Positions 1,108 through 52,870 of a stretch of 64,000 bases of DNA are shown here, in pieces; position 1 is the stretch's first letter, and each line of letters opens with the position of its first letter. The notes under the pieces are model-generated. The model saw nothing but the letters and a program-made list of their open reading frames with translations, was not told the origin of the DNA and made no database searches. The position numbers and the translations under genes were made by a program. The stretch lies in contig OZ244145.1 in the NCBI GenBank assembly GCA_965216245.1, forward strand, positions 820,943 through 884,942. The letters are read 5' to 3'. The DNA comes from Chloroflexota bacterium. Lineage in GTDB: Bacteria > Chloroflexota > UBA11872 > VXOZ01.

Positions 1108-1134
1108 GCGCAGGTTACAAACCTGCGCTACCGG
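1108..1134 (-). repeat. 26-nt hairpin repeat, reverse orientation (reverse complement is CCGGTAGCGCAGGTTTGTAACCTGCGC).
   Basis: Exact-match family with the copies at 19931 and 41751. Confidence 0.55.
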
Positions 1135-2083: not shown

Positions 2084-2884
2084 TCAAGCCTGGTGCTGGG
2101 CCGACTTGCACGCCGCCAGCACGCGCGCCATGTTTCTGTAGAGAATCTTCTCTTTATCTTCATTCTGCAGGTCCGTGCCAAGTACTTTCGCAAGCTGTGA
2201 GGGGAACGAGCGGCCCGGCATGTCGGTGCCAAAGATTACGCGGTCAGCTCCAACATGGTCAACGAGTATGTGCACGCCAGCCGCATTGCATTCGTTACCG
2301 GCGATATCCAGCAAAACATTGGGACAACTACGGAAGACCTTAGCGCCGTATTCGTAATCACCGCCGGCATGCGCCGCAATGATGGTGGCGTTCGGATGGC
2401 GGCGCGCCATATCCGCCACTATCTCCGGCGACGATTCCCCGTAGCCTAGTCCATCTGCCTTCAGCCACGTGTGCTGCAAGGCCGGCACGCGGTAGTGCGC
2501 ACAGATTTCCAGCAAGCGGTCCACGCGTGGATCGGAGCACGGCAGCGCGTGCCACAGCTTGAGACCGACAAAGTGCTGCTCCGTCAAGCGTCTCTCTAGC
2601 TCCGCCGCCGCGGCGTCAGCATGGTAGGGGTTCACGTAGCAGAAACCGCGCACGCGCTCGGGATAGCGCTGCATGAGCGCGTACGTCTCGTCATTGGAGC
2701 GCCGGCAGAATTCCGGCGTTGGGAATGAGTAGCGAGAAGCATCAGCCACCGGCCGGATGGCGTACGTCACAAGCACCGCGTCGAATTGCTCCGCTATTTC
2801 GATCTGTTCCGCGAAGTCGTCCAACGATTTCCCTACGTCGGTATGGACGTGGACGTCAATAATCGCCACCAAATCGCCTTTCAA
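2084..2884 (-). CDS. Amidohydrolase-2 family metal-dependent hydrolase/decarboxylase (the superfamily includes ACMSD, LigW and LigI).
   Basis: IDVHVHT HxH motif, a later AHAGG His and a GTDMP Asp, with TIM-barrel amidohydrolase_2 spacing. It is a close paralog of 3027-3836. Confidence 0.75.
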   Translation of the reverse strand: MKGDLVAIIDVHVHTDVGKSLDDFAEQIEIAEQFDAVLVTYAIRPVADASRYSFPTPEFCRRSNDETYALMQRYPERVRGFCYVNPYHADAAAAELERRLTEQHFVGLKLWHALPCSDPRVDRLLEICAHYRVPALQHTWLKADGLGYGESSPEIVADMARRHPNATIIAAHAGGDYEYGAKVFRSCPNVLLDIAGNECNAAGVHILVDHVGADRVIFGTDMPGRSFPSQLAKVLGTDLQNEDKEKILYRNMARVLAACKSAQHQA

Positions 2885-2908
2885 GTCTCAAGTGGGATAG
2901 TTCGCGAT

Positions 2909-2936
2909 GTCATTCCGAGCGCAGCGAGGAATCTAG
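2909..2936. repeat. Solo terminal-repeat unit of the same family (GTCATTCCGAGCGCAGCGAGGAATCTAG) between the two amidohydrolase paralogs.
   Basis: Exact match of the 18-nt core to the 22859 and 23244 copies. Confidence 0.5.
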
Positions 2937-3026
2937 GGCCTCGGTTTGCCATCCCTCGCCAGTTCTCTGCCCAAAATGACGGCACAACGGACCTGAATTC
3001 AATAGGAGCGCATTGCGCCCAAGATT

Positions 3027-3836
3027 TCAACACTGTGTAGCAAAGATCAACGGATTCTTGATGGTCTTGGTCCCGGCCAGTACTCGCGCCATATTCCCAT
3101 AGAGAATGTTGTCTTTATCGTCTGTACTTAAGTCCGCGCCCAGCACCTTTGCCAGTTGCGATGGAAAGGAACGGCCCGGCATGTCTGTGCCGAAGATTAC
3201 ACGGTCCGCCCCCACGTGATCCACGAGTATTTCCACATAGCCGGCGTTGCACTCGTTGCCGCCAATGTCGAGCAACACGTTGTCACACGAACGAAAGACC
3301 TTCGCACCATACTCGTAGTCGCCGCCGGCGTGGGCGGCAATGATTGTGGTGCGCGGATGGCGTTTTGCCAGCGCGGCGACCATCGCCGGCGGCGATTCGC
3401 CGGTCTTCTGTCCATTCGCCTTAATCCACGTGTGCTGAAGTGCGGGCACGCGGTAGTGGGCGCAAATCTCCATGAGCGCATCGAGCCGTACATCAACGCA
3501 CGGCACCGCCACCCAGAGCTTGAGGCCGACGAAGTGCTGCTGCCCCAAACGAAAATCAAGTTCGTCACACGCCTCCCGCGCATGGCCGGGGTTCACGTAG
3601 GCGAATCCCTGCACGCGCTCAGGGTAACGCTCCATCAACACGTGAGTCTGATCGTTGCAGGCGCGGATGTTCTCCGGTGTAGGGTATTCGTGGTTGTTCC
3701 CGACCTCTACCGGCCGCACTGAGTAGGTGACAAGGTGGGCATCAAACTGCTCAGCAATAGCGATCAACTCAGCGAAGTCATCTAATTTGCGTGAAACGTG
3801 TGGGTGCACGTGTACGTCTATAATCACCGCATTCAC
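3027..3836 (-). CDS. Amidohydrolase-2 family metal-dependent hydrolase/decarboxylase (tandem paralog).
   Basis: IIDVHVHPH, AHAGGDYEYGAKVF and GTDMPGRSFPSQLAKVLG are conserved with 2084-2884. I estimate about 75-80% nucleotide identity from eyeballing aligned stretches. Confidence 0.75.
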   Translation of the reverse strand: MNAVIIDVHVHPHVSRKLDDFAELIAIAEQFDAHLVTYSVRPVEVGNNHEYPTPENIRACNDQTHVLMERYPERVQGFAYVNPGHAREACDELDFRLGQQHFVGLKLWVAVPCVDVRLDALMEICAHYRVPALQHTWIKANGQKTGESPPAMVAALAKRHPRTTIIAAHAGGDYEYGAKVFRSCDNVLLDIGGNECNAGYVEILVDHVGADRVIFGTDMPGRSFPSQLAKVLGADLSTDDKDNILYGNMARVLAGTKTIKNPLIFATQC

Positions 3837-5467: not shown

Positions 5468-5741
5468 ACTTCTACTTAGCTTTCCGGTCGCACAAACGCG
5501 CTACCTTGAGCGCTTTGCGCAGCCGCTCTTAGCCATCCATCGGCAAAAAGAACTTACGCGCCCGTACCTCCTTTCCGCTTAATTCGACAGTCCACTTTCG
5601 CCTGAGAGTAGCGGCCGTCGGCGGTATTCGGCTTGCTTAAGTTTTCGTTATTCTGCGCTGAGTCCGAACGGCGTCGCCCAAGGATTCTCTGCTCGATATC
5701 CTGCCAGGTGTTGGATTTCCAAACCGATCGCAGGGCAGTTG

Positions 5742-6518
5742 CTAGAGAATCTGCGACAAGAAACGGCGCACCCGCTCGTGGCGCGGATTATTGAAGAACT
5801 CAGCAGGCGGCAGGTCTTCGACGATCTGGCCTTCGTCGAACATAACGATGCGGTCGGCCACTTCGCGGGCAAAACCCAACTCGTGGGTGATAGCCACGAT
5901 GGTCATCTGCTGTGAAGAAGCCAGTTCTTTCATTACTTCCAGCACTTCCTTGATCATCTCCGGGTCCAGAGCCGACGTGGGCTCGTCGAAGAGCATGATC
6001 TTGGGTTGCATCGCCAGCGCACGGGCGATAGCGACACGCTGCTGCTGACCGCCCGAGAGTTCGCCTGGATATTTGTCAGCCTGTTCCGGTATGCCCACAC
6101 GCTCCAGGAGCTCCCGCGCACTGTTCTCCGCATCGGCCAAGGGCGTTTTGCGCACCTTGGTTGGAGCCAGCGTGATGTTACGCAGTACCGTTAGATGGGG
6201 AAAGAGGTTGAACGATTGGAACACCATGCCTACCTCTCGGCGAATGGCGTCTATGTTGCGCACATCATCGGTCATCTCGACCCCATCAACGATGATATCG
6301 CCGCGCTGATGTTGCTCCAAGCGGTTGATGGCGCGGATAAACGTAGACTTACCCGAGCCGGAGGGGCCGATAACCACCACCACCTCGCTGCGGCGCACAG
6401 AGGTGGTGACGCCACGCAGGGCATGGAAGTCACCGAACCACTTGTGTACGTCACGGGCCACTATGATGTTGTCTGCTTCAGGAGCCTGTTCCGACGCTAC
6501 TGCTGCTTCTGCTGCCAC
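5742..6518 (-). CDS. Polar amino-acid ABC transporter ATP-binding protein (AapP/GlnQ-like).
   Basis: Walker A GPSGSGKST, signature LSGGQQQRVAIARAL and Walker B MLFDEPTSALD. Confidence 0.85.
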   Translation of the reverse strand: MAAEAAVASEQAPEADNIIVARDVHKWFGDFHALRGVTTSVRRSEVVVVIGPSGSGKSTFIRAINRLEQHQRGDIIVDGVEMTDDVRNIDAIRREVGMVFQSFNLFPHLTVLRNITLAPTKVRKTPLADAENSARELLERVGIPEQADKYPGELSGGQQQRVAIARALAMQPKIMLFDEPTSALDPEMIKEVLEVMKELASSQQMTIVAITHELGFAREVADRIVMFDEGQIVEDLPPAEFFNNPRHERVRRFLSQIL

Positions 6519-6589
6519 GTTAACCTCCGAGTGTTTCGACGCCCCATCGCAACCCTTGCGTGGGACTCATCCTTTGAAATCACTACGCA

Positions 6590-7879
6590 TTACCGTTGGC
6601 CAACGCCAAGATGCCGTTCCACCCGACGACTGACAAATGACATTGTGTACGTAAAGATCCAGAACACCACCGCCACGAATATGAAGAGCTCCCGTGCGTT
6701 GTCCGCGAATTGGACGTTGCCCTGCACGATGGAGCGTCCCATCTCCAAAATATCCAGCATGCCGACAATGTAAACCAGACTCGTGTCCTTGAACAGCGAA
6801 ATGAACTGCCCCACGATTGCGGGTATCACATTGCGGATAGCCTGAGGCAATTGTATCAGCATGGTGACCTGCCAGCCCGGCAGACCCAGGGCACGTGCCG
6901 CCTCGGCTTGACCCGGATGCAGTCCCTGCAGTCCCCCACGAATATTCTCGGCCGTGTACGCCGCCGAGAAGAGCGTAATCACAATAGCCGCCCGCGTCAC
7001 GGAGTCGACGGGAAAGTTCGACGGCAAGGCGAGCGGTACCAGCACTTGCGACATGAAAAGCAGCGTAATCAGCGGTACGCCGCGAAAAACCTCGATGAAT
7101 ACCACGCAGAGAACCTTGACCACCGGCAGATTGCTCCGCCGTCCGAGCGCCAGCAGCACACCAATTGGAAAAGCAAAGAAGATACCCGATACTGCCAGAA
7201 TCAGGTTGAGCATCAGGCCGCCCCACTTACGCGGCGCCACCTCTTCCATGCCGGGAAAACCCGGTAATCCGTTGAGCAACAGTAGCAGGAACACGTAGAT
7301 CGCAATGCCGCCGAGCACGAACGTGCGTGGTTGCCCGGTTCTAGGATGGCTACCCAAGCCGTAGCCTAGGCCGATGGTCAACACGTTAGCCAGAATAAGA
7401 GCACGCACCCACCAGGGCATTACCACGCCCTCGTGGAAGAGGCCGTAGGGCAGCACTCCTAGCAACACCGTAACGACGCTATAGCCGATGGCAATGCGCC
7501 GGGCAGCTCCACCCCACATGGCGGCAGCCATGCCGAAGAGGATTGAGACCAGCAGCCAACCTACTAACGGCCGCCATGCGAGTTCTGTTGGGTACAGGCC
7601 GATGAGATACTGTTGCGGTCGGCTCGCGATGAGCGTCCAGTCAGCGGTGCCGAAAACCCAGCGTATAATGCTCCAGATCAACCATAGGAGCATCGGTACA
7701 GTGACCACGGTCACAATGCCGCTAAGCCAGTTGCCAAATAAGTTGGTCCTAGCCCAACCAATCCAACCTGTTTCTGTGAGTGGCGGAGGCAGTGAGGGCG
7801 CCGGTTGCCACGATTCCGCAGTAGCCATAAAGCAGCTAGCCTTAATTGAACTGGATGTGCCGGTTATAAAGATTGCCAA
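6590..7879 (-). CDS. Amino-acid ABC transporter permease (AapM/BztC-like large permease). The likely true start is the internal Met at about 7828, which removes the 38-bp overlap.
   Basis: Multiple TM segments and the EAA loop motif GQAEAARALGLPGWQVTMLIQLPQAIRNVIP. Confidence 0.8.
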   Translation of the reverse strand: MAIFITGTSSSIKASCFMATAESWQPAPSLPPPLTETGWIGWARTNLFGNWLSGIVTVVTVPMLLWLIWSIIRWVFGTADWTLIASRPQQYLIGLYPTELAWRPLVGWLLVSILFGMAAAMWGGAARRIAIGYSVVTVLLGVLPYGLFHEGVVMPWWVRALILANVLTIGLGYGLGSHPRTGQPRTFVLGGIAIYVFLLLLLNGLPGFPGMEEVAPRKWGGLMLNLILAVSGIFFAFPIGVLLALGRRSNLPVVKVLCVVFIEVFRGVPLITLLFMSQVLVPLALPSNFPVDSVTRAAIVITLFSAAYTAENIRGGLQGLHPGQAEAARALGLPGWQVTMLIQLPQAIRNVIPAIVGQFISLFKDTSLVYIVGMLDILEMGRSIVQGNVQFADNARELFIFVAVVFWIFTYTMSFVSRRVERHLGVGQR

Positions 7880-9101: not shown

Positions 9102-10238
9102 CTAGCGCAGTGGCGCCGCATATATCTGACCGCCCTTGGGGCAGTCCGAGCACGGGGCATTCGACCACAACGCGTTGCGGGATCCTTCCCGCGGTAGATC
9201 GATGTCTGTCTCCGGACCCAAGTTCCGCGCATAGATCTCGCCGTAGTTCCCAACCATCTTGATTACGGTCTGCCCTACGATTTTATCGAGGCCCAATTCA
9301 TCTTGCCCGAACGAACCCTCTGTGCCAAGCAAGCGCTTTGCCTTCACGTTGTCCCCAACGGCCATCTCGTCAACGTTGGTCGAGTTGATACCGTACGCCT
9401 CGGCGTAAATCAAGATGCTCATTACCGTCTTTACAATGTCGAACCACTGCTCGTCGCCGTGAGGCACCAGCGGTCCCAGCGGCTCCTCGGAAATCGTCTC
9501 CGGCAGGATGACGTGTTCATCCGGATTAGTCAAAGAACTCCGCAGCGCCGTAAGCGCCGAGCGGTCGGTCGTGAACACTTCACAGGCGCCGCTCTTATAG
9601 GCCGCGAAGGCCACTTGCGCCTCTTCGAATGTCTTTGGATTATACTCCATATTGTTCTGGCGGAAGAAGTCGGCCATGTTCAGCTCAGAAGTGGTGCCGG
9701 TATTTACGCAGACCGCCGCGCCTGCCAACTCGTACGCGCTCGCCACTCCCAGGTTCCTAGGTACCATGAAGCCCTGGCCGTCATAGAACATCGTTTGCAC
9801 GAAATTTCCCCAAGCGGCGTCGCGGGACGTCGTCCACGTTGTCACGTACACGAGTAAATCCACTTCGCCCGACTGCATCACAGGCCCGCGCTCGGCAGCC
9901 GAAATCAGACGAATCTCAACGGCATCAGGATCACCTAACACGCCCGCAGCCACGGCCCGGCAGAGATCGATGTCAAAACCGACACTATTACCGGTTTCGT
10001 CCACGTAGCCAAACCCCGGCGTGTCGTTGAGGCTGGCACAGATGAGACGACCCCGAGCGCGCACTGCCTCAAGACGCGAGGTCTCAGCCTGCGCCACTAC
10101 AGCCTCGGTCTCAGGTTTTTCGGCAGAATTTTCCATCTCCGGCTCGGTAGTCGTGGCGCAGGCCGCGCTCAGCGCGAACATGAGCGCCATTCCCAAGACA
10201 GCCAAACACTTTCCCGTCTGATTCAAGCAAGTCCTCAT
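9102..10238 (-). CDS. General L-amino-acid ABC transporter substrate-binding lipoprotein (AapJ-like), copy 1.
   Basis: Signal peptide plus lipobox LSAAC. It has a family-3 SBP-like fold and shares most of its length with 10495-11622. Confidence 0.8.
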   Translation of the reverse strand: MRTCLNQTGKCLAVLGMALMFALSAACATTTEPEMENSAEKPETEAVVAQAETSRLEAVRARGRLICASLNDTPGFGYVDETGNSVGFDIDLCRAVAAGVLGDPDAVEIRLISAAERGPVMQSGEVDLLVYVTTWTTSRDAAWGNFVQTMFYDGQGFMVPRNLGVASAYELAGAAVCVNTGTTSELNMADFFRQNNMEYNPKTFEEAQVAFAAYKSGACEVFTTDRSALTALRSSLTNPDEHVILPETISEEPLGPLVPHGDEQWFDIVKTVMSILIYAEAYGINSTNVDEMAVGDNVKAKRLLGTEGSFGQDELGLDKIVGQTVIKMVGNYGEIYARNLGPETDIDLPREGSRNALWSNAPCSDCPKGGQIYAAPLR

Positions 10239-10439
10239 GGCATTCCCAGCCTCTTTGCTAAAGGCACCCTAAGACTCCACATCAATCAGAGCATACACCC
10301 ATTGCCGCAGCAGGGAAACCATTCGCAGTGCGGCACGCTGCGTAAGCTAGTCTATCTTGAACCTTGACCCAGCCCCTCATAACTACAGCGCAACACTGCT
10401 CCAGCATCCAGCAGCGCAGCGAGGTGGTAATACCAAAAG

Positions 10440-10475
10440 TCGCGTCGACCCGGAAGAGGTCCAGGCCGACGCGAC
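10440..10475. terminator. Hairpin GTCGCGTCG-N18-CGACGCGAC between the two aapJ paralogs.
   Basis: 9-bp stem read directly from the sequence. Confidence 0.35.
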
Positions 10476-10494
10476 GATTATCAGCGACTACGAA

Positions 10495-11622
10495 CTAGCG
10501 CAGCGGCGCAGCATAGATCTGTCCGCCCTTCGGGCAGTCAGTGCAAGGCGCATTCGACCACAGCGCATTGCGCGAACCCTCACGCGGCAGATTGACGTCC
10601 GTCTCCGGACCCAAGTTCCGCGCATAGATCTCGCCATAGTTGCCTACTGCCTTGATAACGTTCTGGCCCACTAGCTTATCAAGTCCCAACTGTTCTTGAC
10701 CAAATCCGCCTTCCGTGCCCAGCAAGCGCTTCGCCTTCACATTATCGCCAACGGCCATCGCGTCAACGTTGGTCGAGTTGATGCCGTAGGCTTCGCCGTA
10801 GATCAGGATGCTCATCACGGTCTTCACAATGTCGAACCACTGCTCGTCACCGTGGGGCACCACCGGTCCCAGCGGCTCCTCGGAAATCGTCTCCGGTAGA
10901 ATGATGTGTTCATCCGGATTAGGCAGAGCCGTCCTCAGCGCGGCAAGCTGCGAGCGGTCGTTAGTAAAGACTTCGCACGCGCCACTCTTGTAGGCTTCAA
11001 GCACCACGTCTGTATCTTCATAGACCTTCGGGTTGTACTCCAAGCCGTTCTGGCGGAAGTAGTCGGCCATGTTCAACTCGGTGGTCGTACCGCTGGTCAC
11101 ACAGACCGCGGCGCCAGCCAACTCAAGTGCGCTACTCACACCCAGGCTCTTCGGAACCATGAAGCCCTGGCCGTCGTAGAACATTGTCTGCGCGTAGTTA
11201 CCCCATGCAGCATCGCGCGAGGTCGTCCATGTGACGGTGCGTACGAGCAAGTCCACCTCGCCCGACTGGACGGTAGGTCCGCGCTCGGCAGCCGTAATCA
11301 AGCGGATTTCAAATGCATCCGGGTCGTTCAGCACGGCCGCTGCCACGGCGCGGCAAAGGTCGATGTCGAAGCCCACGCTATTGCCGGCCTCGTCTATGGA
11401 ACCGTAGCCCGGCACATCGTTGCGGCTAGCGCAAATGACGTGTCCCCGTTCCTTCACGGTTTCCAAGCGTGAAGTCTTAGCCGTTTCCACCACCACGGGC
11501 TTGGGTTCGCCATCTTTTTCCATCTCTCCCGAATCCGCCTCGTCATCACCGCACGCCACACTGAAAAGCAGCGCGAGCATGACGCCCAAAACGACCAGGA
11601 GCTTACAAAGATTTCTCATCAT
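10495..11622 (-). CDS. General L-amino-acid ABC transporter substrate-binding lipoprotein (AapJ-like), copy 2 (tandem paralog).
   Basis: Signal peptide plus lipobox FSVAC. Long near-identical blocks are shared with copy 1 (e.g. GNSVGFDIDLCRAVAA, LPETISEEPLGP). Confidence 0.8.
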   Translation of the reverse strand: MMRNLCKLLVVLGVMLALLFSVACGDDEADSGEMEKDGEPKPVVVETAKTSRLETVKERGHVICASRNDVPGYGSIDEAGNSVGFDIDLCRAVAAAVLNDPDAFEIRLITAAERGPTVQSGEVDLLVRTVTWTTSRDAAWGNYAQTMFYDGQGFMVPKSLGVSSALELAGAAVCVTSGTTTELNMADYFRQNGLEYNPKVYEDTDVVLEAYKSGACEVFTNDRSQLAALRTALPNPDEHIILPETISEEPLGPVVPHGDEQWFDIVKTVMSILIYGEAYGINSTNVDAMAVGDNVKAKRLLGTEGGFGQEQLGLDKLVGQNVIKAVGNYGEIYARNLGPETDVNLPREGSRNALWSNAPCTDCPKGGQIYAAPLR

Positions 11623-11849
11623 TTCCCCTCCCTCATAGCACCTCTTCGTGCTTCGATATTGCGATCCATTATATTGACTACACTATCCCGTTGCAACTAA
11701 GAAAACTGCCCTATCAACATCGACTTGCCACCGGCATCTAGCCTCGTTGCCAAGCACAGCTTGACTTGCGGGCACATAGAGATGTCTCCTAGGCCTCCTT
11801 TCAATCGCAAATCACTAAACTGCGGTGCCGGAATAACTTGAATCTAGGG

Positions 11850-12791
11850 CTAACCAACCACCACGGACTGCTGCGCAAGCACACGTTCCGCTTCACGAGT
11901 TGAACGATCGTGGTATTCCACCCAATTCTCAAGACCGTACTCGCTCTTGATGCGTGACATCGGCCACGCGTCGTCGTTGGATTCCACCATGAATACGCCG
12001 TCGTCCCGTGTACCTATTATAGTTACCCTGTGCCCGAGATCCGTCTGCATCTGGCGAATCTGCTCGTATTGCATGTCGTAGTGGAAAACTTCAGCTTCAA
12101 GATCAACCGTACTGTGAGCCACGTGCACGCCCAAGCCACTGGCGGCAACCTCGTCTCCGAGTTTGTTGATAATGCGCGAGCGTCCGCCGCTCACCGAAGA
12201 GACGATGATGTAACTGTGCAGCCAGGCATACGCTCGCAACCGCAAGCCGCCGTCGCACATGCTTGGGAAGACTACAAGCTCGGCCCCTGCCGCGCCGAGC
12301 CGCGCCCACTCTTCCGGATAGTCAACGTCGAAGCAGATGAGCATTCCTACCCTGCCAAAATCCGTCTCGAAAACCGGCAATTCGGAATAGACTCCGGGAA
12401 CCGTCCCTGCCTCGAGCTCTCCCAGCGTAGGATGGACCTTGTCATATTGACCGACGATTTCGCCCTGACGATCAAAGAGGACGCTGGTATTGAGCCGCAC
12501 GTTACCGCGCACCTCACACATGCCGGCAACGACATACATGCCATGCTGACGGGCCTTTTCCGCATAGACGTCTGAGGTCGGACCGGGAATGGGCTCCCAT
12601 GCTTTCTCACGTTCCTCCGCGTCGCCCGACAGGCCCAAAATAGTGAATTCTTCCGGCAAGCACGCAAGATCAGCGCCCAAGCCTCCCATCCGATCCAGCA
12701 GTTCCGCCGCCAATTCGTGGTTCGCGGCAATCGAAGCGCGGCTACTCATGTGGCCGACGCACGCAGTGGCTACCAACGCTTTGCGCGGCAT
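11850..12791 (-). CDS. Carbon-nitrogen hydrolase family protein (nitrilase/amidase superfamily).
   Basis: CN-hydrolase layout with catalytic Glu, Lys and Cys. The Cys lies in the GMLICFD context. Confidence 0.75.
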   Translation of the reverse strand: MPRKALVATACVGHMSSRASIAANHELAAELLDRMGGLGADLACLPEEFTILGLSGDAEEREKAWEPIPGPTSDVYAEKARQHGMYVVAGMCEVRGNVRLNTSVLFDRQGEIVGQYDKVHPTLGELEAGTVPGVYSELPVFETDFGRVGMLICFDVDYPEEWARLGAAGAELVVFPSMCDGGLRLRAYAWLHSYIIVSSVSGGRSRIINKLGDEVAASGLGVHVAHSTVDLEAEVFHYDMQYEQIRQMQTDLGHRVTIIGTRDDGVFMVESNDDAWPMSRIKSEYGLENWVEYHDRSTREAERVLAQQSVVVG

Positions 12792-19930: not shown

Positions 19931-19956
19931 TCCGGTAGCGCAGGTTTGCAACCTGC
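19931..19956 (+). repeat. 26-nt hairpin repeat CCGGTAGCGCAGGTTTGCAACCTGCG in the mutL downstream intergenic region.
   Basis: 6- to 7-bp stem CGCAGG(T)/(A)CCTGCG with a 7-nt loop TTTGCAA (anticodon-loop-like). Confidence 0.55.
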
Positions 19957-20136
19957 GTCTGTTGTAGGGTCAATCCCTTGCGCACCCGTTTCTCTCAGCG
20001 AAAATGCTAAAGACGCGCCCTGTGCTGCTGACGTGGCCGCAGTTCCGCGTGCTCTGGCGGGGGACAAGCCCCCGCGCTACATTTCATCTTTCATCTGGGC
20101 AAACATACCCACTACACTATGGAATTTTATTCTTGG

Positions 20137-22233: not shown

Positions 22234-22683
22234 ATGGCTGAACTCAAACGCTACGAGCCCCACACGTTCGCAACCGCACAGGACGTCTTCGATCGACTAT
22301 TCGATCGGTCCCTCTTTGGCCCGGGACTCTTCGCCAATGGGACCACGCCGCATGCAAGCCGAGGCTTCCCTTCCAACCTATGGGAAACCGACGAGGCATA
22401 CGTGCTGGAGTTGGCGATACCGGGTGTCAACCCCGACGACGTCGAGATGACCCTGAGCAAAGGCAGCTTGATCATCAAGGGCCGGTACGATCAATCTGGG
22501 GCCACCACAGGAACGCGCATCTGGCACAATCTGCCTGAGGGCAAATTCGAGATTGCGTACACATTGCCGAGCGCTGTCTACGCCGATGAGGCTGCGGTCT
22601 CCTGGGCGAACGGCATCTTCAAGGTGCACCTGCCCAAGGAGGAGAAAGCCAAGTCGAAGCGGCTAAAGATCAACGTCGGCTAG
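22234..22683 (+). CDS. Hsp20/alpha-crystallin family small heat-shock protein.
   Basis: Alpha-crystallin domain (AYVLELAIPGV..KGSLIIKG..HNLPEGKFEIAYTLP) with a C-terminal I/V-x-I/V-like tail. Confidence 0.9.
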   Translation: MAELKRYEPHTFATAQDVFDRLFDRSLFGPGLFANGTTPHASRGFPSNLWETDEAYVLELAIPGVNPDDVEMTLSKGSLIIKGRYDQSGATTGTRIWHNLPEGKFEIAYTLPSAVYADEAAVSWANGIFKVHLPKEEKAKSKRLKINVG

Positions 22684-22728
22684 TGGGAATCTCTCTGTAG
22701 GTACCTGCCCATTAGTAAACCAACGCCC

Positions 22729-22750
22729 ACGGAGCTTGCACGAGCTCCGT
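22729..22750 (+). terminator. Hairpin ACGGAGCT-tgcacg-AGCTCCGT immediately after the hsp20 stop.
   Basis: 8-bp perfect stem read from the sequence. No strong U-tract. Confidence 0.4.
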
Positions 22751-22808
22751 AGGCGTCTTGGTATTCTAGGCTGGATCGCTAAATTGCCGTCATTCCTGTA
22801 AATGTTGA

Positions 22809-23058
22809 GTAATTCGTTGACAGAATTCGCTTTCCACCAGGCAGCGTTGACCGATTATGTCATTCCGAGCGCAGCGTCGAACAGTGTTCGCTGACTTCGT
22901 CAAAGACGCGGAATCTGGAGTCCATGTCGCACCTAGTCCAATAGGCTCAGCACTTTAGATTCCTCTCTGCGCTGCGCTCCGTTCGGAATGACATGTGTAC
23001 AAGGCATGCACGACGCGTCGCTTATCTTCTCTTTATTGAAAATCTGTCAACGAATTAC
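22809..23058. mobile_element. Composite MITE-like element, consistent with nesting. Outer inverted repeats GTAATTCGTTGACAGA (22809-22828 and 23043-23058). They enclose an inner 135-bp element (22859-22993) bounded by GTCATTCCGAGCGCAGCG...CGCTGCGCTCCGTTCGGAATGAC inverted repeats.
   Basis: The inverted repeats were read directly. There is no ORF encoding a transposase, so it is non-autonomous. Confidence 0.55.
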
Positions 23059-23243
23059 CTGACACCTACAATTCCCGTGCAAACGGGAATCCATCTTCTC
23101 CGCACTGCGCACGTAGCCATTGGCGGAGGACAAGCCTCCGTGCTTCAGTTTCTTGCAATCAAATTCCGAAACGGAATTAGTAGACCTAGGCTTGAAGCCT
23201 TTGCGAGGCAGCGGTTCTTGTCATTTGCATATTGCCTTTTGGT

Positions 23244-23357
23244 GTCATTCCGAGCGCAGCGTCGAACAGGGTTCGCGGAATCTAGAATGCCCCCGACTCT
23301 AGATTCTTCGTCGCGGAGTTTATCCTGAGCTTGCCGAAGGGCTCCTCAGAGAATGAC
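23244..23357. mobile_element. Second MITE-like copy of the same family (GTCATTCCGAGCGCAGCGTCGAACAGGGTTCGCGGAATCTAGA ... GAGAATGAC) with an internal GAATCTAGA/TCTAGATTC palindrome.
   Basis: The left end is nearly identical over about 30 nt to the copy at 22859. The right end is degenerate. Confidence 0.5.
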
Positions 23358-23533
23358 AGTTTGAGGACCTGGCTTAGGCCCGGGTACGACCACGTGTCTT
23401 GCATGTGACTCATCTAAGCCCAAGACTGCTAATTCCGTTCCGAAATTCAGGCTTACTTGTGTCAGAGCTACTCTTCGTAATTGAACACAACCCATACATG
23501 GCCCCGCAGAGATGTCCACCGTCTTCACGCCCC

Positions 23534-25294
23534 TCACCGCTCGACGAGCGCGCTCCCTTGTTCCACTTTCCAACGTTGTGCCCGGTCGTAGAGTTCGCGC
23601 GCGCTGCGCTCGGCCGCTGCTCCCGCTGCTCCGCCCATCGCTGCCAACTCATCGATTCGCTCATCCGGTGACAGAGCATGCACGTGCGTAGCCGTGCGGT
23701 TATCCACCGTTTCCTTGTGAATGAAAAAGTGTTGGTCGGCGTACGCCGCCACCTGCGGCAGGTGCGTCACGCAGATCACCTGGTGATTCCGCACAAGGCT
23801 CCACAGCTTCTCACCTAGCACCGCGCCGCTGCGGCCGCCGACGCCAATCTCAATCTCGTCGAAGATGAGCACCGGCGTCTCGTCGACGTGGGCGAGCGCC
23901 GCCTTGAGGGCAAGCAGGAGGCGGGATGCCTCGCCGCCGGAAGCAATAGTCGCCAGTGGCTTCAAGGGTTCGCCGCGATTGGAGCTAATGAGAAACTCCA
24001 CGGTATCGATACCCGTTTGCCCGCATTGCAGCGTCCGCGGCCCTTCCTCAGTTTCCACCAAGAGCCCTTGCGGCACTTCCTCCTGAGTCACGGCCACGTC
24101 AAATTGCATATGCGGCATACCGAGCAATGTTAGTTCGCGGTGCACGGCAGCGACCAAGTCTCCTACGCCGGACTTCCGTTTCGCCGAGAGTTCAACGGCG
24201 CGTGCAGCGAGCTCGCCGGTGAGTCGTTGCAGTTCGCGCGCGATATCTTCTGCGCGGTTCTCGCTGGTTTGAATGCCGGTCAGCTCTGTCGCCGCTTGCT
24301 CCGCATACGCCAATATCTCTGCGATGCTATCCCCGTACTTGCTTTTCAAGCTTTCGATTATGTCCAGCCGGGCCTCTACCTCCAGCAGTCTCGTCGGCTC
24401 ACATTCCAGACTGCCGGCATAGCGCCGCATGTCAGCGACCAACTCCTCCAACTGAGCCGAAAGCTCTTGACCGACCTGGAGATACGGCTCTGCCTCGGGA
24501 TCGAGTTCCACCAATTGTTGCAGAGCCTTTACGGCCTCTCCCACCCAATCGTTTGCAGGCCGCGCGGGTTCGGCGGCATCGCTGAGCGCTTCGAGAATCT
24601 GACCCGAGAGATCCACAAGCTCCGCACTGTGACGCAGCCGCCGATACTCGCCCCGCAGCGCATATTCTTCGCCGGGGGAAAGGCTTGCCTCGACGATTTC
24701 CTGGATTTGAAAAATAAGCAAGTCGGAGCGCTGCGCAAGCTCCCGTCCATCCTGCTGGAGATGCCGCATTTCAGTCTGCACGGCATTTGACACACGATAC
24801 GCGTGCGTAACTTGCTGCCGCACTTCATCCAGGCCGGCAAAGCGATCGAGAAACTCCAATTGCAGCTTGGAACGAAGCAGTGAGAGATTCTCGCCCTGAC
24901 CGTGAATGTCGACAATGAGGCCGGTCACCTGCTGCAATGCACTTACGGGCATTGCTCGGCCTTGAATGCGGGCAGTGGTGCGCCCGGAAGCCGCGATCTC
25001 CCGCGAGAGCAGCAAACGACCGCCATCATCTAGGGTAACACCGACCTCATCCAATGCTTCTGCGAGGGCCGGGCAAACCGTCTCCAGCACGAAAGTACCT
25101 TCAACCCGCGCCGTACGAGCGCCGCTGCGCACGTCGGCAGCGCCTACACGATTGCCGAGCAGAGCGCCGATAGCATCGATGACGATCGACTTGCCGGCGC
25201 CGGTCTCACCGGTAAGGACATTGAACCCAGCGCCAAGCTCGACCTGCACTTCGTCAATCAGCGCGAAGTCATGAATTTCCAAGTGCTCCAACAT
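23534..25294 (-). CDS. recN: DNA repair protein RecN.
   Basis: N-terminal MLEHLEIHDFALID..LTGETGAGKS Walker A, a long coiled-coil middle and a C-terminal ABC signature/Walker B (LLALKAAL..LIFDEIEIGVGG). Confidence 0.9.
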   Translation of the reverse strand: MLEHLEIHDFALIDEVQVELGAGFNVLTGETGAGKSIVIDAIGALLGNRVGAADVRSGARTARVEGTFVLETVCPALAEALDEVGVTLDDGGRLLLSREIAASGRTTARIQGRAMPVSALQQVTGLIVDIHGQGENLSLLRSKLQLEFLDRFAGLDEVRQQVTHAYRVSNAVQTEMRHLQQDGRELAQRSDLLIFQIQEIVEASLSPGEEYALRGEYRRLRHSAELVDLSGQILEALSDAAEPARPANDWVGEAVKALQQLVELDPEAEPYLQVGQELSAQLEELVADMRRYAGSLECEPTRLLEVEARLDIIESLKSKYGDSIAEILAYAEQAATELTGIQTSENRAEDIARELQRLTGELAARAVELSAKRKSGVGDLVAAVHRELTLLGMPHMQFDVAVTQEEVPQGLLVETEEGPRTLQCGQTGIDTVEFLISSNRGEPLKPLATIASGGEASRLLLALKAALAHVDETPVLIFDEIEIGVGGRSGAVLGEKLWSLVRNHQVICVTHLPQVAAYADQHFFIHKETVDNRTATHVHALSPDERIDELAAMGGAAGAAAERSARELYDRAQRWKVEQGSALVER

Positions 25295-38777: not shown

Positions 38778-39432
38778 TGCTAACCTCTCCTTGTGGGCCC
38801 CGCCGGACCCAATCTGAAGTTTGCCACTAACCATTCATTCCTGCGGAATCTGCATGAGTGTTCTTGTCTATATTTGGCGCAAACGCAGTCTCTTTACGTC
38901 TACGCCGAAGATTCCTTAGCACATTATAGACGATTCGGTGTTGACATTCGAGACTTCAGTATCTTCAAGACACTGTTGATGCCGAACATGTAACAAGCTC
39001 AACCGCCAAAGCGGACGGAACTCTCACACTGCCCCATGCTAATGCATGATTTTCAAGAGAATGTGAAGAAATGACAACGAGAGGAAAGTTGGGAACCACT
39101 TATGCAAACAGATAGCTTGCATGAGAAAGCACGCCGCGTTGAGCCGGCTTACGGCTTTGCCGGCGCAGTGACATGCAACCGCCGCGCGAATTACTCCACC
39201 CGCGGCAGAGTGCGCTATTGTTCGGTCAGAGCCTCAGGAGCAGCCTTCGCAGCCTCGCCACAGCACATGTTTCAGCACCATCTCATCCGACCCAGCAGCG
39301 AACGAAAAGCAAATTCCACGCATAGCAAGACCGCTCATGGTTCGACAGAGCCTGCACTGAGCTTGTCGAAGTGCTCACCACGAACGGTCTGCGGGCTGCA
39401 AATCTCTTCACTAGGGCCCCTGGGCCGGAAAT

Positions 39433-41750: not shown

Positions 41751-41776
41751 CCGGTAGCGCAGGTTTGTAACCTGCG
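41751..41776 (+). repeat. 26-nt hairpin repeat CCGGTAGCGCAGGTTTGTAACCTGCG upstream of the dcyD-like gene.
   Basis: Same core. The loop is TTTGTAA. Confidence 0.55.
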
Positions 41777-44749: not shown

Positions 44750-44936
44750 AGACACTCCCGTCATTCTCGCGGAAGCGGGAATCCATCTTCATGGTGCCAG
44801 GTTGTCTCATAGCGGGGTGCAGCGAGAGTACACACAGGCTCTACAGTTTACGGATCACTTTCCTATCCATGCGAGGAGCCATGCAACAGTGAGCCCCTGC
44901 AACCAATTGAGATTCCTCGCTTCCGCTCGGAATGAC
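44750..44936. mobile_element. MITE-like element of the same family (about 187 bp). The 27-bp terminal inverted repeats are CGTCATTCTCGCGGAAGCGGGAATC and GATTCCTCGCTTCCGCTCGGAATGACG.
   Basis: The inverted repeats were read directly. The internal GGGAATCCATCTTC block is also present at 23085. Confidence 0.55.
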
Positions 44937-52766: not shown

Positions 52767-52806
52767 ATTCGGCTGCCCTACACCTCCTCTTCTCTACGTG
52801 CCATCT

Positions 52807-52870
52807 TCGCGTCTGCGCGCAATTCTCGCGTCTACGCGCCGTTTTCGCGTCTGCGCGCCGTTCTCTCGCG
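52807..52870. promoter_or_regulatory. Three tandem direct repeats of about 20 bp (TCGCGTCTGCGCGCAATTC / TCGCGTCTACGCGCCGTTT / TCGCGTCTGCGCGCCGTTC) upstream of the ABC exporter pair. It is a candidate transcription-factor binding array.
   Basis: Repeats read directly from the sequence. Confidence 0.45.

Follow-up and report, generated by a model that had tools for sequence, protein, structure and literature searches.

A probable NIME-like array of Ssn-type DNA hairpins between hsp20 and recN in a Chloroflexota genome

Known hairpin systems and the parts of the gap

SsnA of Neisseria is a GIY-YIG nuclease of ~95 amino acids, whose target is the NTS/dRS3 repeat in the form of single-stranded DNA (Nat Commun 2025;16:2388, PMC11893778). 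The NTS reads CGTCATTCCCGCGMAVGCGGGAATCYRG, and dRS3 is written ATTCCC-N8-GGGAAT (PMC11893778, PMC1797815). The enzyme binds the hairpin solely as ssDNA, not as RNA, and cuts a few nucleotides upstream (PMC11893778). Mutagenesis of the NTS showed that the 3' C is crucial for binding and the 3 nt upstream of the palindrome for cleavage, and that the loop is dispensable or can be extended (PMC11893778). Rickettsia is listed among the SRM-rich genera, and the published SRM pattern, transcribed here from the text of that paper, is HGTCWYN(0-2)YYVSBRHN(0-5)WNVSBRGN(0-2)RNCYNB (PMC11893778).

In NIME arrays, 20-bp inverted repeats of the form ATTCCC-N8-GGGAAT flank spacers (RS) of 50-150 bp (PMC1797815). 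These arrays are intergenic, vary between strains in their number of units and gather opportunistic insertions, and the Nf prophage uses dRS3 as an integration site (PMC1797815). REP repeats serve as insertion targets for IS (PMC1525189).

The window, the whole 64-kb stretch of DNA that was analysed, contains a gap of 850 bp between the convergent hsp20 and recN genes of a Chloroflexota genome. We read this gap as an intergenic array, mosaic and NIME-like, of Ssn-type DNA hairpins, with a conventional small transposon in one hairpin, and put the probability of this reading at roughly 0.65. Besides canonical, NTS-like hairpins, it holds hairpins of a GA-type, GTCATTCC-GAGCG-N-AGCGA-GGAATC. The parts of the gap are:

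22723-22756: terminator-like hairpin common to the convergent hsp20 and recN, present in strain L001 and in the relative L002
22789-22796, plus strand: GTCATTCC, foot on the 5' side plus half of the stem; the MITE insertion separates it from the rest of a canonical NTS-like hairpin
22797-23070: 274-bp MITE ('I2-type') with TG...CA ends, sequence string TGTAAATGTTGAGTAATTCGTTGACAGA; TIRs at 22797-22827 and 23040-23070, ATTCC duplication on both sides
22859-22992: hairpin doublet A, 134 bp, carried within the 274-bp MITE
22859-22916, plus strand: left hairpin of doublet A, GA-type, with an expanded interior of 33 nt
22958-22992, minus strand: right hairpin of doublet A
23071-23092, plus strand: 3' part of the MITE-split hairpin, ATTCCCGTGCAAACGGGAATC+C, a perfect dRS3 match (ATTCCC-N8-GGGAAT)
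23093-23243: RS-like spacer segment S, from the blastn map and alignment; L001 has it on the opposite side of the MITE
23162-23193, plus strand: left arm, 32 nt, of another inverted pair, the third (81% complementary to 23416-23447)
23244-23357: hairpin doublet B, 114 bp, absent from strain L001
23244-23282, plus strand: left hairpin of doublet B, GTCATTCCGAGCGCAGCG[TCGAACAGGGTTCG]CGGAATC-TAG
23302-23357, minus strand: right hairpin of doublet B
23416-23447, minus strand: right-hand partner of 23162-23193; the pair brackets doublet B

As the original prediction had stated, no transposase is encoded in the gap; its one sizeable ORF (22993-23328) has no Pfam match. An Rfam scan, over the whole window at the gathering threshold and over the gap at E<=10, returned nothing relevant. 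The left arm of the third inverted pair holds the mini-palindrome ATTCCG-AAA-CGGAAT (2 matches vs. 0.01 expected).

The prediction had seen MITE-like units of one lineage-specific family, nested in one another. Its repeats are real and lie near the positions it gave: the core GTCATTCCGAGCGCAGCG has four matches in the window, where shuffles would give 0.11. Three of them are exact (2909, 22859, 23244), and one, on the minus strand at 22975-22992, has two mismatches. A non-coding, multi-copy intergenic repeat family is borne out. The inner unit, given as 135 bp (22859-22993), exists, but measures 134 bp and ends at 22992; its 20-nt arms are 90% complementary, and over its full length the folding energy is -32.4 kcal/mol (z -4.9). 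The second copy, 23244-23357, was confirmed at 114 bp. Three things had been missed: the GTCATTCC at 22789 abutting the outer unit, the third inverted pair, and the fact that each 'terminus' is itself a hairpin.

Hairpins, doublets and the element inserted in one of them

Each 'terminus' folds on itself, with a T-GTC foot, an ATTCC/GGAAT stem, a variable interior and then C-TAG. The interior is tolerant and expandable; here, it often consists of G·A/A·G and GC/GC pairs closed by a GNA triloop. With their ends written GTCATTCCGAGCG...CGCTCGGAATGAC, the window copies read (T)GTCATTCC...GGAATC, followed by TAG, TGG or CAT. Solo hairpins are common, and the doublets are two inverted hairpins around a spacer of 20-130 nt (median doublet, 88 nt). 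The 'MITE-like' units are such inverted hairpin doublets.

Covariation was measured in 44 non-canonical copies, chosen solely by their GTC foot and inner core. Stem pairing reaches 94.8% of cells, compared with 84% in shuffles (0/500 as high) and 11-55% in slid controls, and double-sided changes occur at five pairs, in 49 cells. The hairpin is maintained by selection. The C just 3' of the stem, on which these copies were not selected, is conserved in at least 90% of them. Folding energy speaks convincingly for a hairpin in the canonical type but not in the GA-type: in a nearest-neighbour DNA model, the 25-nt GA-type hairpin folds at -2.7 kcal/mol (z -0.15), in comparison with -8.1 kcal/mol (z -6.2) for the perfect 8-bp hairpin ATTCCCGTGCAAACGGGAAT at 23071-23092.

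The claim that these are terminal inverted repeats of MITEs did not hold: each end is a covarying hairpin matching NTS/dRS3/SRM, and none of 104 doublets has a target-site duplication, direct flank identity being at chance (k=2: 6 vs. 6.5 expected). A T stands at position -1 in 86 of the 104, and the flanks are T-rich on the 5' side and A-rich on the 3' side. A search for filled and empty sites found no clean case of a doublet outside tandem arrays; it gave only copy-number variation of tandem units adjoining ssn, for which recombination accounts.

The motif TGTCATTCC recurs at four positions, 2909, 22859, 23244 and 44760, and at three more on the minus strand (22992, 23357, 44936). The copies outside the gap are:

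2909-2980: isolated doublet between two Amidohydro_2 paralogues; left, the canonical GA-type 25-mer and TAG; right arm decayed
38837-38850, plus strand: minimal hairpin ATTCC-TGC-GGAATC without GTC foot
44760-44936: hybrid doublet, 177 bp, with one arm of each hairpin type
left hairpin of 44760-44936: canonical NTS type, GTCATTCTCGCGGAAGCGGGAATC
right hairpin of 44760-44936, minus strand: GA-type, GTCATTCCGAGCGGAAGCGAGGAATC

All of these had been noticed before, with some differences in extent. At 2909 the core is exact and the copy runs to 2980, but its right arm is decayed; the element described as 44750-44936 (187 bp) is real but starts at 44760. Among the supposed fragments, 23071-23092 is a hairpin and 38837-38850 is a minimal one, probably a remnant, but 11839-11851, which matches the 2909 copy over no more than an 11-mer (GAATCTAGGGC), can be a remnant at most. 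Canonical GTAG-footed REPs also occur in this genome.

The outer unit, given as 250 bp, is a true MITE of 274 bp, unrelated to the hairpin doublets; the nesting seen in the original prediction is real, but not that of one family. Its arms (22797-22827 and 23040-23070) are 31 nt long and 81% complementary, with a perfect 16-mer, GTAATTCGTTGACAGA, at 22809 and 23043. The 5-bp ATTCC duplication that flanks it (22792-22796 and 23071-23075) lies in the hairpin stem, and an ATTCC/GGAAT duplication is found in three of the four complete copies. An empty site exists in strain L001 (RecN 97% identical), where an intact hairpin, GTCATTCCGTGCAAGCGGGGATC, occupies the same place. Copies of the MITE also occur in L001 and in L041; in the latter, a relative, the same type of element is nested three deep, with GGAAT duplications. 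This gives a filled-versus-empty example of a mobile element aimed at a hairpin stem, which parallels the insertion of IS into REPs and of phage into dRS3. The Ssn cut site was considered as the point of entry and rejected, as the SsnA cut lies outside the ATTCC stem, a few nucleotides upstream of the NTS.

In L001, the gap measures 828 bp and is rearranged, and its copy of doublet A is without the 32-nt interior block 22872-22902. Relatives at 78% (L002) and 76% RecN identity have gaps of 133 and 339 bp, from which the elements are absent; the terminator-like hairpin 22723-22756 is the sole part of the gap kept in distant relatives, and the L002 gap contains essentially nothing else. Because the gap is rearranged in the 97% strain and the relatives at 76-78% are without the elements, the array is dynamic and strain-variable, and the state of these relatives makes the absence of an array ancestral. 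The content of the gap changes with time. The doublet at 2909 has an orthologous copy in L150 (adjacent amidohydrolase 97% identical) and a decayed one in L151 and L153 (88% identical). As it is conserved orthologously down to that identity, some copies are old residents, not recent insertions.

Distribution and the link with ssn loci

The exact 25-nt terminus is present in >120 genome stretches from >15 phyla and in 26 viral contigs; hence, the family is not specific to one lineage. In L064, a terminase large-subunit gene contains one doublet in frame. When 4380 ORFs from 146 motif-bearing loci were clustered all against all, no recurrent neighbour family emerged apart from a shared phage block; where inverted termini lie 450-3500 bp apart, the ORFs between them are ordinary genes only. 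No IS or other ORF-bearing version with the same ends was found in ~1.1 Mb of motif-bearing loci. A full-text literature search with GA-type sequence strings returned primers only; the link with the Ssn/NTS literature came through the CCCGCG variant.

The outer parts of the window hairpins equal the NTS/dRS3 repeat, CGTCATTCC…GGAATCYRG. The window copies have the H-GTC foot directly 5' of the palindromic hairpin and, directly 3' of it, the C followed by YRG that is a feature of SRMs. As transcribed, the published SRM pattern matches no window hairpin, and its three matches are unrelated sequences. The GA-type copies deviate from it at the G·A positions; by hand, the 44760 hairpin falls narrowly short, and 23071 fits the stem and tail part, its foot having been lost to the MITE insertion.

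Among 105 loci with ssn homologues, a GTC-foot hairpin lies within 150 nt upstream in 76, downstream in 79 and on both sides in 63 (60%), the usual layout being hairpin(+)-gene-hairpin(-). This independently reproduces the association known from the literature (PMC11893778). The hairpin flanking ssn in L164 is one base from the 44760 hairpin of the window. In L268 and L269, divergent GIY-YIG genes have GA-type doublets on their flanks; these are the only two of the 105 loci where this type directly flanks the gene, and the hairpins at near-consensus ssn genes are of the CCCGCG type. Queried for further GA-type ssn loci, the L268 and L269 proteins returned only themselves. A GIY-YIG regular expression and an Ssn HMM found no ssn-like ORF in the 64-kb window or in 153 GA-motif loci (~1.1 Mb). 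The GA-type is grouped with the canonical type because of the doublets flanking the GIY-YIG genes of L268 and L269 and because 44760-44936 is a hybrid of both. The window hairpins are probably a variant of the known Ssn-target system, not a lineage-specific MITE family.

Explanations and comparison with known systems

In the mosaic-array reading, the genome would encode a cognate Ssn-family nuclease elsewhere, and the hairpins would act when the DNA is single-stranded, during replication, repair or the entry of incoming DNA. The arrays would grow and shrink via recombination or repair at the hairpins, not by cut-and-paste transposition. The MITE inserts into the ATTCC hairpin stem with duplication of 5 bp, and since it carries a hairpin doublet of its own, new copies can land in old ones, which gives rise to the nesting. 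More tentatively, the GA-type hairpin and its doublets could be a distinct pan-bacterial class whose cognate is a divergent or unrecognised nuclease, and the TG...CA MITE a self-nesting 'hairpin-homing' element carrying its own target. An enzyme outside the canonical Ssn clade is suggested by the near-absence of GA-type flanks at near-consensus ssn genes; all in all, we consider this version possible, if doubtful.

The foot-plus-hairpin design, the doublets and the missing target-site duplications would also fit REP/REPIN-type elements served by an HUH Y1 protein (RAYT/TnpA-REP or class 3 TnpAY1), where a hairpin with a 4-nt foot is cut and rejoined as ssDNA and doublets are mobile like REPINs. 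The GTAG-footed REPs of this genome point the same way, as do class 3 TnpAY1 genes of Acidobacteria and Planctomycetes, flanked by high-copy CnGAGCCGCGACCGTAAGGGAGCG hairpins of the same stem-GA/GA-stem-loop design. However, the foot has GTCA in place of GT[AG]G or CnGA, the curated REPtron table of Quentin et al. does not list the hairpin sequence, and no Y1 gene recurs next to the motif in 146 loci. With the outer positions identical to the NTS and hairpins of this design flanking ssn in 60-75% of loci, a Y1-served system is unlikely. A classical MITE family, whose TIRs are bound by a trans-acting DDE transposase from a full-length IS with the same ends, would account for small, non-coding, intergenic units that have inverted ends and vary between strains, and the outer 274-bp unit does fit this description. 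The GTCATTCC doublets do not: in addition to the 104 cases without target-site duplication and the independent covariation of each arm, solo hairpins are common, neither an ORF-bearing version nor a recurrent neighbouring transposase occurs in ~1.1 Mb, and an identical 25-mer across >15 phyla is unlike IS ends. We give this origin of the doublets very little credence.

Hairpins that work at the RNA level once transcribed, whether as terminators, mRNA stabilisers or small RNAs, could be expected from the GNRA/GNA-type loops and the location at gene 3' ends, and compensatory changes cannot separate RNA from ssDNA. Such a role is nevertheless very improbable: the T-rich 5' and A-rich 3' flanks are the reverse of an intrinsic terminator, the motif occurs on both strands and in doublets, and no Rfam match appears even at E<=10. 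Moreover, SsnA binds the homologous hairpin as ssDNA, not RNA, and the real terminator hairpin of the gap is a separate, conserved structure. A conserved orthologous regulatory sequence of hsp20 and recN, a condition named beforehand as speaking against mobility, would agree with the 2909 copy, which is kept at the same site in relatives (adjacent amidohydrolase 88% identical), but not with the gap: the elements are absent from the syntenic gaps at 76-78% RecN identity and rearranged at 97%, and the sequence recurs between genes that are unrelated, as well as across phyla. For the hsp20-recN gap this explanation is already refuted, and its overall probability is negligible.

On the preferred mosaic-array reading, the Ssn/NTS hairpin system is extended to Chloroflexota. 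A GA-type variant that occurs verbatim in >15 phyla and is missed by the published pattern means that surveys may undercount these repeats, and many 'MITE-like' intergenic palindromes, and spurious ORFs derived from them, may be nuclease-target hairpins. If the partner nuclease were found, the GA-type hairpin would offer a new specificity for ssDNA-cutting tools.

Rickettsia palindromic elements are palindromic repeats that can insert in frame within protein genes, and the L064 doublet resembles them in its in-frame position. REP/REPIN/BIME systems with RAYT are closer in their foot-plus-hairpin units, inverted doublets, lack of target-site duplication and single-copy partner gene with its own repeats on the flanks (PMC3116915, PMC6006769). 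They differ in the foot sequence and in the partner, GIY-YIG vs. HUH-Y1, and REPs are species-specific, whereas the 25-mer is common to several phyla. With NIME arrays, the locus shares array architecture and between-strain variability. Here, however, the phylum is another one, most hairpins are ATTCC-N11-GGAAT, some with a longer interior, and the inserted element is a MITE that makes target-site duplications, not a filamentous phage or Correia element; the dRS3 consensus, a name defined for Neisseria, is fitted exactly by 23071-23090 only. In comparison with the Ssn/NTS/SRM system, most copies here have a tandem G·A inner stem and a GNA triloop (GAGCG-N-AGCGA) and stand chiefly in inverted doublets, the host belongs to Chloroflexota whereas the published family is mainly from Pseudomonadati, and no ssn gene was found in the 64-kb window of this genome. 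The two have in common the HGTC foot, the ATTCC...GGAAT palindrome, the C-YRG tail and the tolerant loop; in both, the repeats are multi-copy, intergenic and clustered, and ssn genes have hairpins on their flanks in the manner of IS ends.

The repeat array between hsp20 and recN

The 850-bp gap between hsp20 and recN is best read as an array of Ssn-type hairpin repeats, similar to the Neisseria intergenic mosaic (NIME) arrays, with an inserted hairpin-targeting MITE. The gene pair is flanked by mutL and NAD kinase. The window belongs to a Chloroflexota genome, the named homologues of RecN being from Chloroflexota or Anaerolineae. The 18-mer GTCATTCCGAGCGCAGCG is found exactly at 2909, 22859 and 23244 and, with two mismatches, at 22975-22992 on the minus strand (0.11 matches expected from shuffles). 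The repeats of the original prediction were located at or near the positions given (inner unit, outer pair, second copy, copies at 2909 and 44760), and the absence of a transposase held as well: no recognisable protein is encoded in any part of the hsp20-recN repeat region. Its interpretation, a nested and lineage-specific MITE-like family, was partly right.

Features of the window
22234-22683, plus strand: hsp20, convergent with recN
23534-25294, minus strand: recN, convergent with hsp20
22859-22992: inner unit (doublet A, two inverted hairpins and a spacer)
22797-22827 and 23040-23070: outer inverted pair
23244-23357: second copy (doublet B)
23162-23193 and 23416-23447: third inverted pair, bracketing the second copy
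2909-2980: further copy
44760-44936: further copy, one arm of the GA type, the other canonical
1109-1131 (minus), 19935-19957 (plus) and 41754-41776 (plus): GTAG-foot REP, three copies vs. 0.00 expected

The order nadK-recN-gap-hsp20-mutL is conserved in relatives. At 78% RecN identity (L002), the gap is 133 bp and contains a terminator hairpin alone; at 76% (L003), it measures 339 bp and is unrelated in sequence. In L001, the strain at 97% RecN identity, the gap has 828 bp in another arrangement, where doublet B is absent and the spacer 23093-23243 lies on the opposite side of the outer unit. The 2909 copy, by contrast, is kept in place, progressively decayed, in relatives that share 97% and 88% identity in the amidohydrolase next to it.

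The GTAG-foot repeat is a second, unrelated hairpin of canonical REP design (GTAG foot and CGCAGGTT-TGY-AACCTGCG). Its resemblance to the subclass 2.7 REPs tabulated by Quentin et al. suggests that the genome has a RAYT at another place. The window also contains a 19-nt unit (TCTACGYGCC-TTYTCGCG) four times in tandem at 52793-52868, 76-84% alike, and tandem paralogous genes at 2084-3836 (two Amidohydro_2 genes on either side of the 2909 doublet, with 73% identity over 300 nt) and 9102-11493 (1393 bp apart, 71-82% identity).

Hairpin structure and doublets

Each "terminus" is a hairpin by itself, composed of T-GTC, ATTCC, an interior, GGAAT and C-TAG. The commonest interior, GAGCG-N-AGCGA (GA type), would fit a fold with tandem G·A/A·G pairs, then two G-C pairs, then a GNA triloop with a free middle base; all four bases are seen at N. 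Fully paired interiors occur, for example, at 23071 (ATTCCCGT-GCAA-ACGGGAAT) and 44763 (ATTCTCGC-GGAA-GCGGGAAT). The interior is expandable: it measures 33 nt in the 22859 copy, 32 of which are missing from L001.

The hairpin structure is selected. Copies were gathered by the GTC foot and inner core alone, and those identical to the query were left out. Their five outer pairs vary compensatorily (ATCCC/GGGAT, ATTCT/AGAAT, ATCCT/AGGAT, ATTTC/GAAAT, ACCCT/AGGGT, ATGCC/GGCAT). Paired cells amount to 94.8% vs. 84% in shuffles (0/500 as high), with double-sided changes in 49 cells, and slid controls pair at 11-55%. Conservation is at least 90% for the C that directly follows the stem. By a nearest-neighbour DNA model, folding is good for the canonical hairpin (z -6.2) and for the 134-bp unit as a whole (z -4.9), and poor for the short GA-type hairpin (-2.7 kcal/mol).

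Among 104 distinct doublets, from loci selected independently of ssn, the median length is 88 nt (interquartile range 80-105). Direct flank identity is at chance for k = 2-5, and the flanks are palindromic, with T at -1 in 86/104 and A at +1 in 84/104. In the motif-bearing loci, neither an ORF-bearing version nor a protein family recurring beside the motif was seen. Classical MITEs were therefore rejected as an explanation of the doublets, and no insertion sequence with matching ends emerged in ~1.1 Mb of motif-bearing loci. Doublets would be gained and lost by repair or recombination at hairpins, not by cut-and-paste transposition. Tandem arrays of doublets with a 101-nt period exist in L071 (1-280, 1810-2034), L058 (2101-2291) and L076 (2668-2774); there, 3-6 reiterations of the 5' half-hairpin, which begins GTCATTTCGAGC or GTCATTCCGACT, follow each other with a 20-22-nt period. 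This points to slippage at the foot or to copying that was aborted there repeatedly.

Distribution and relation to the Ssn system

The pattern GTCATTCCGAGCGNAGCG-N(1-31)-GGAATC matches 26 viral contigs and, among the matches listed, more than 120 genome stretches. Hosts among these include Acidobacteriota, Chloroflexota, Planctomycetota, Bacteroidota, Verrucomicrobiota, Gemmatimonadota, Nitrospirota, Desulfobacterota, Proteobacteria, Armatimonadota, CPR groups, Firmicutes and one Nanoarchaeota bin. Contrary to the original prediction, this motif is not confined to one lineage.

In seven motif-carrying IMG/VR contigs (L004, L009, L012, L013, L015, L020, L021), large proteins, including ones of ~910-980 and ~530-580 aa, form a shared syntenic block; hence, a related phage/prophage group carries these hairpins. 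In Acidobacteriota and related viral contigs (L015, L025, L027, L047, L050, L111, L146), a conserved block, GGCTGCGGAAAAA(G)TATTT-ATTTT, lies ~25 nt upstream of the motif, before GTCATTCC in many copies, so the repeated unit may be longer than the doublet in that lineage. In L064, a doublet (6431-6533) lies inside a terminase large-subunit ORF (5539-7212; phrog_2, E 4.6e-36, a single match stretch spanning the insert) and is translated in frame (...CHSERSAAEPRNL...SLNMT...), like the in-frame reading reported for Rickettsia palindromic elements.

Rfam contains no relevant family, and the hairpin sequence is not listed in the REP/RAYT literature. The GA-type hairpin shares the stem-GA/GA-stem-loop design of class 3 TnpAY1 repeats; the high-copy Acidobacteria/Planctomycetes hairpin CnGAGCCGCGACCGTAAGGGAGCG (PMC6006769, Table S1) has the same layout (stem, tandem G·A, 2-bp, loop), but the enzyme class differs. 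The fully paired variant, looked for in published texts, pointed to the Neisseria Transformation Sequence (NTS), CGTCATTCCCGCGMAVGCGGGAATCYRG, within which dRS3 (ATTCCC-N8-GGGAAT) lies (PMC11893778). The 94-aa GIY-YIG protein SsnA binds and cuts it in ssDNA only, a few nucleotides upstream; binding depends crucially on the C after the palindrome and cleavage on the three bases before it, while the loop is dispensable. SsnA homologues are widespread, mostly flanked by their own hairpins (PMC11893778). Exactly these outer positions are also present in the window hairpins. The published degenerate SRM pattern (PMC11893778) rejects the GA type; this interior is a variant outside the published motif.

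An approximate Ssn consensus retrieved a very large family of ~95-aa PF01541 proteins. The flanks of ssn homologues at 105 loci often contain a GTC-foot hairpin within 150 nt of the gene (upstream at 76 loci, downstream at 79, on both sides at 63), usually arranged as hairpin(+)-gene-hairpin(-). Near-consensus genes have CCCGCG-type hairpins, two divergent homologues (L268, L269) are flanked by GA-type doublets, and the hairpin that flanks the gene in a member of Thermoanaerobaculia (L164), GTCATTCCCGCGGAAGCGGGAATC, is one base off that at 44760. The assignment to an Ssn-type family is strong. No ssn gene was found in the 64-kb window or in ~1.1 Mb of motif-bearing loci; a cognate Ssn nuclease would be encoded elsewhere in this genome and would act on the hairpins as ssDNA.

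In anaerobic digester and wastewater contigs (L154-L163), ssn lies in a row of small ORFs of toxin-antitoxin-like character (RHH_1, ORF6N, HicA, YafQ, ParE, DUF1902). Between one ORF and the next are clusters made up of two covarying hairpin types, ATTCCCGC/GCGGGAAT and ATGCCCGA/TCGGGCAT. Near-identical contigs differ in how many 87-nt hairpin-pair units they have, and the layout recalls a cassette array.

The outer unit and parallels in known systems

The inner doublet does lie within the outer unit, as originally claimed, but the latter is a separate 274-bp element of another family, with ends TG...CA and inverted repeats of 28-31 nt. It splits a canonical hairpin (GTCATTCC|TGTAAATG...CCTACA|ATTCCCGTGCAAACGGGAATC) with duplication of ATTCC, and L001 has an uninterrupted hairpin at the corresponding spot. 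A three-level nest of this design occurs in L041: each copy has a doublet at the identical internal position and is inserted in the right arm of the next doublet, within GGAAT, which is duplicated. The outer unit targets hairpin stems and has hairpins of its own, and this accounts for the nesting. The Ssn cut site was rejected as its entry point, as SsnA cuts a few nucleotides upstream.

Insertion in a hairpin stem has parallels in the insertion of IS elements into REPs and the integration of prophages into dRS3. Long-established copies next to rapidly changing arrays, as seen in this lineage, agree with what has been described for Neisseria NIME arrays.
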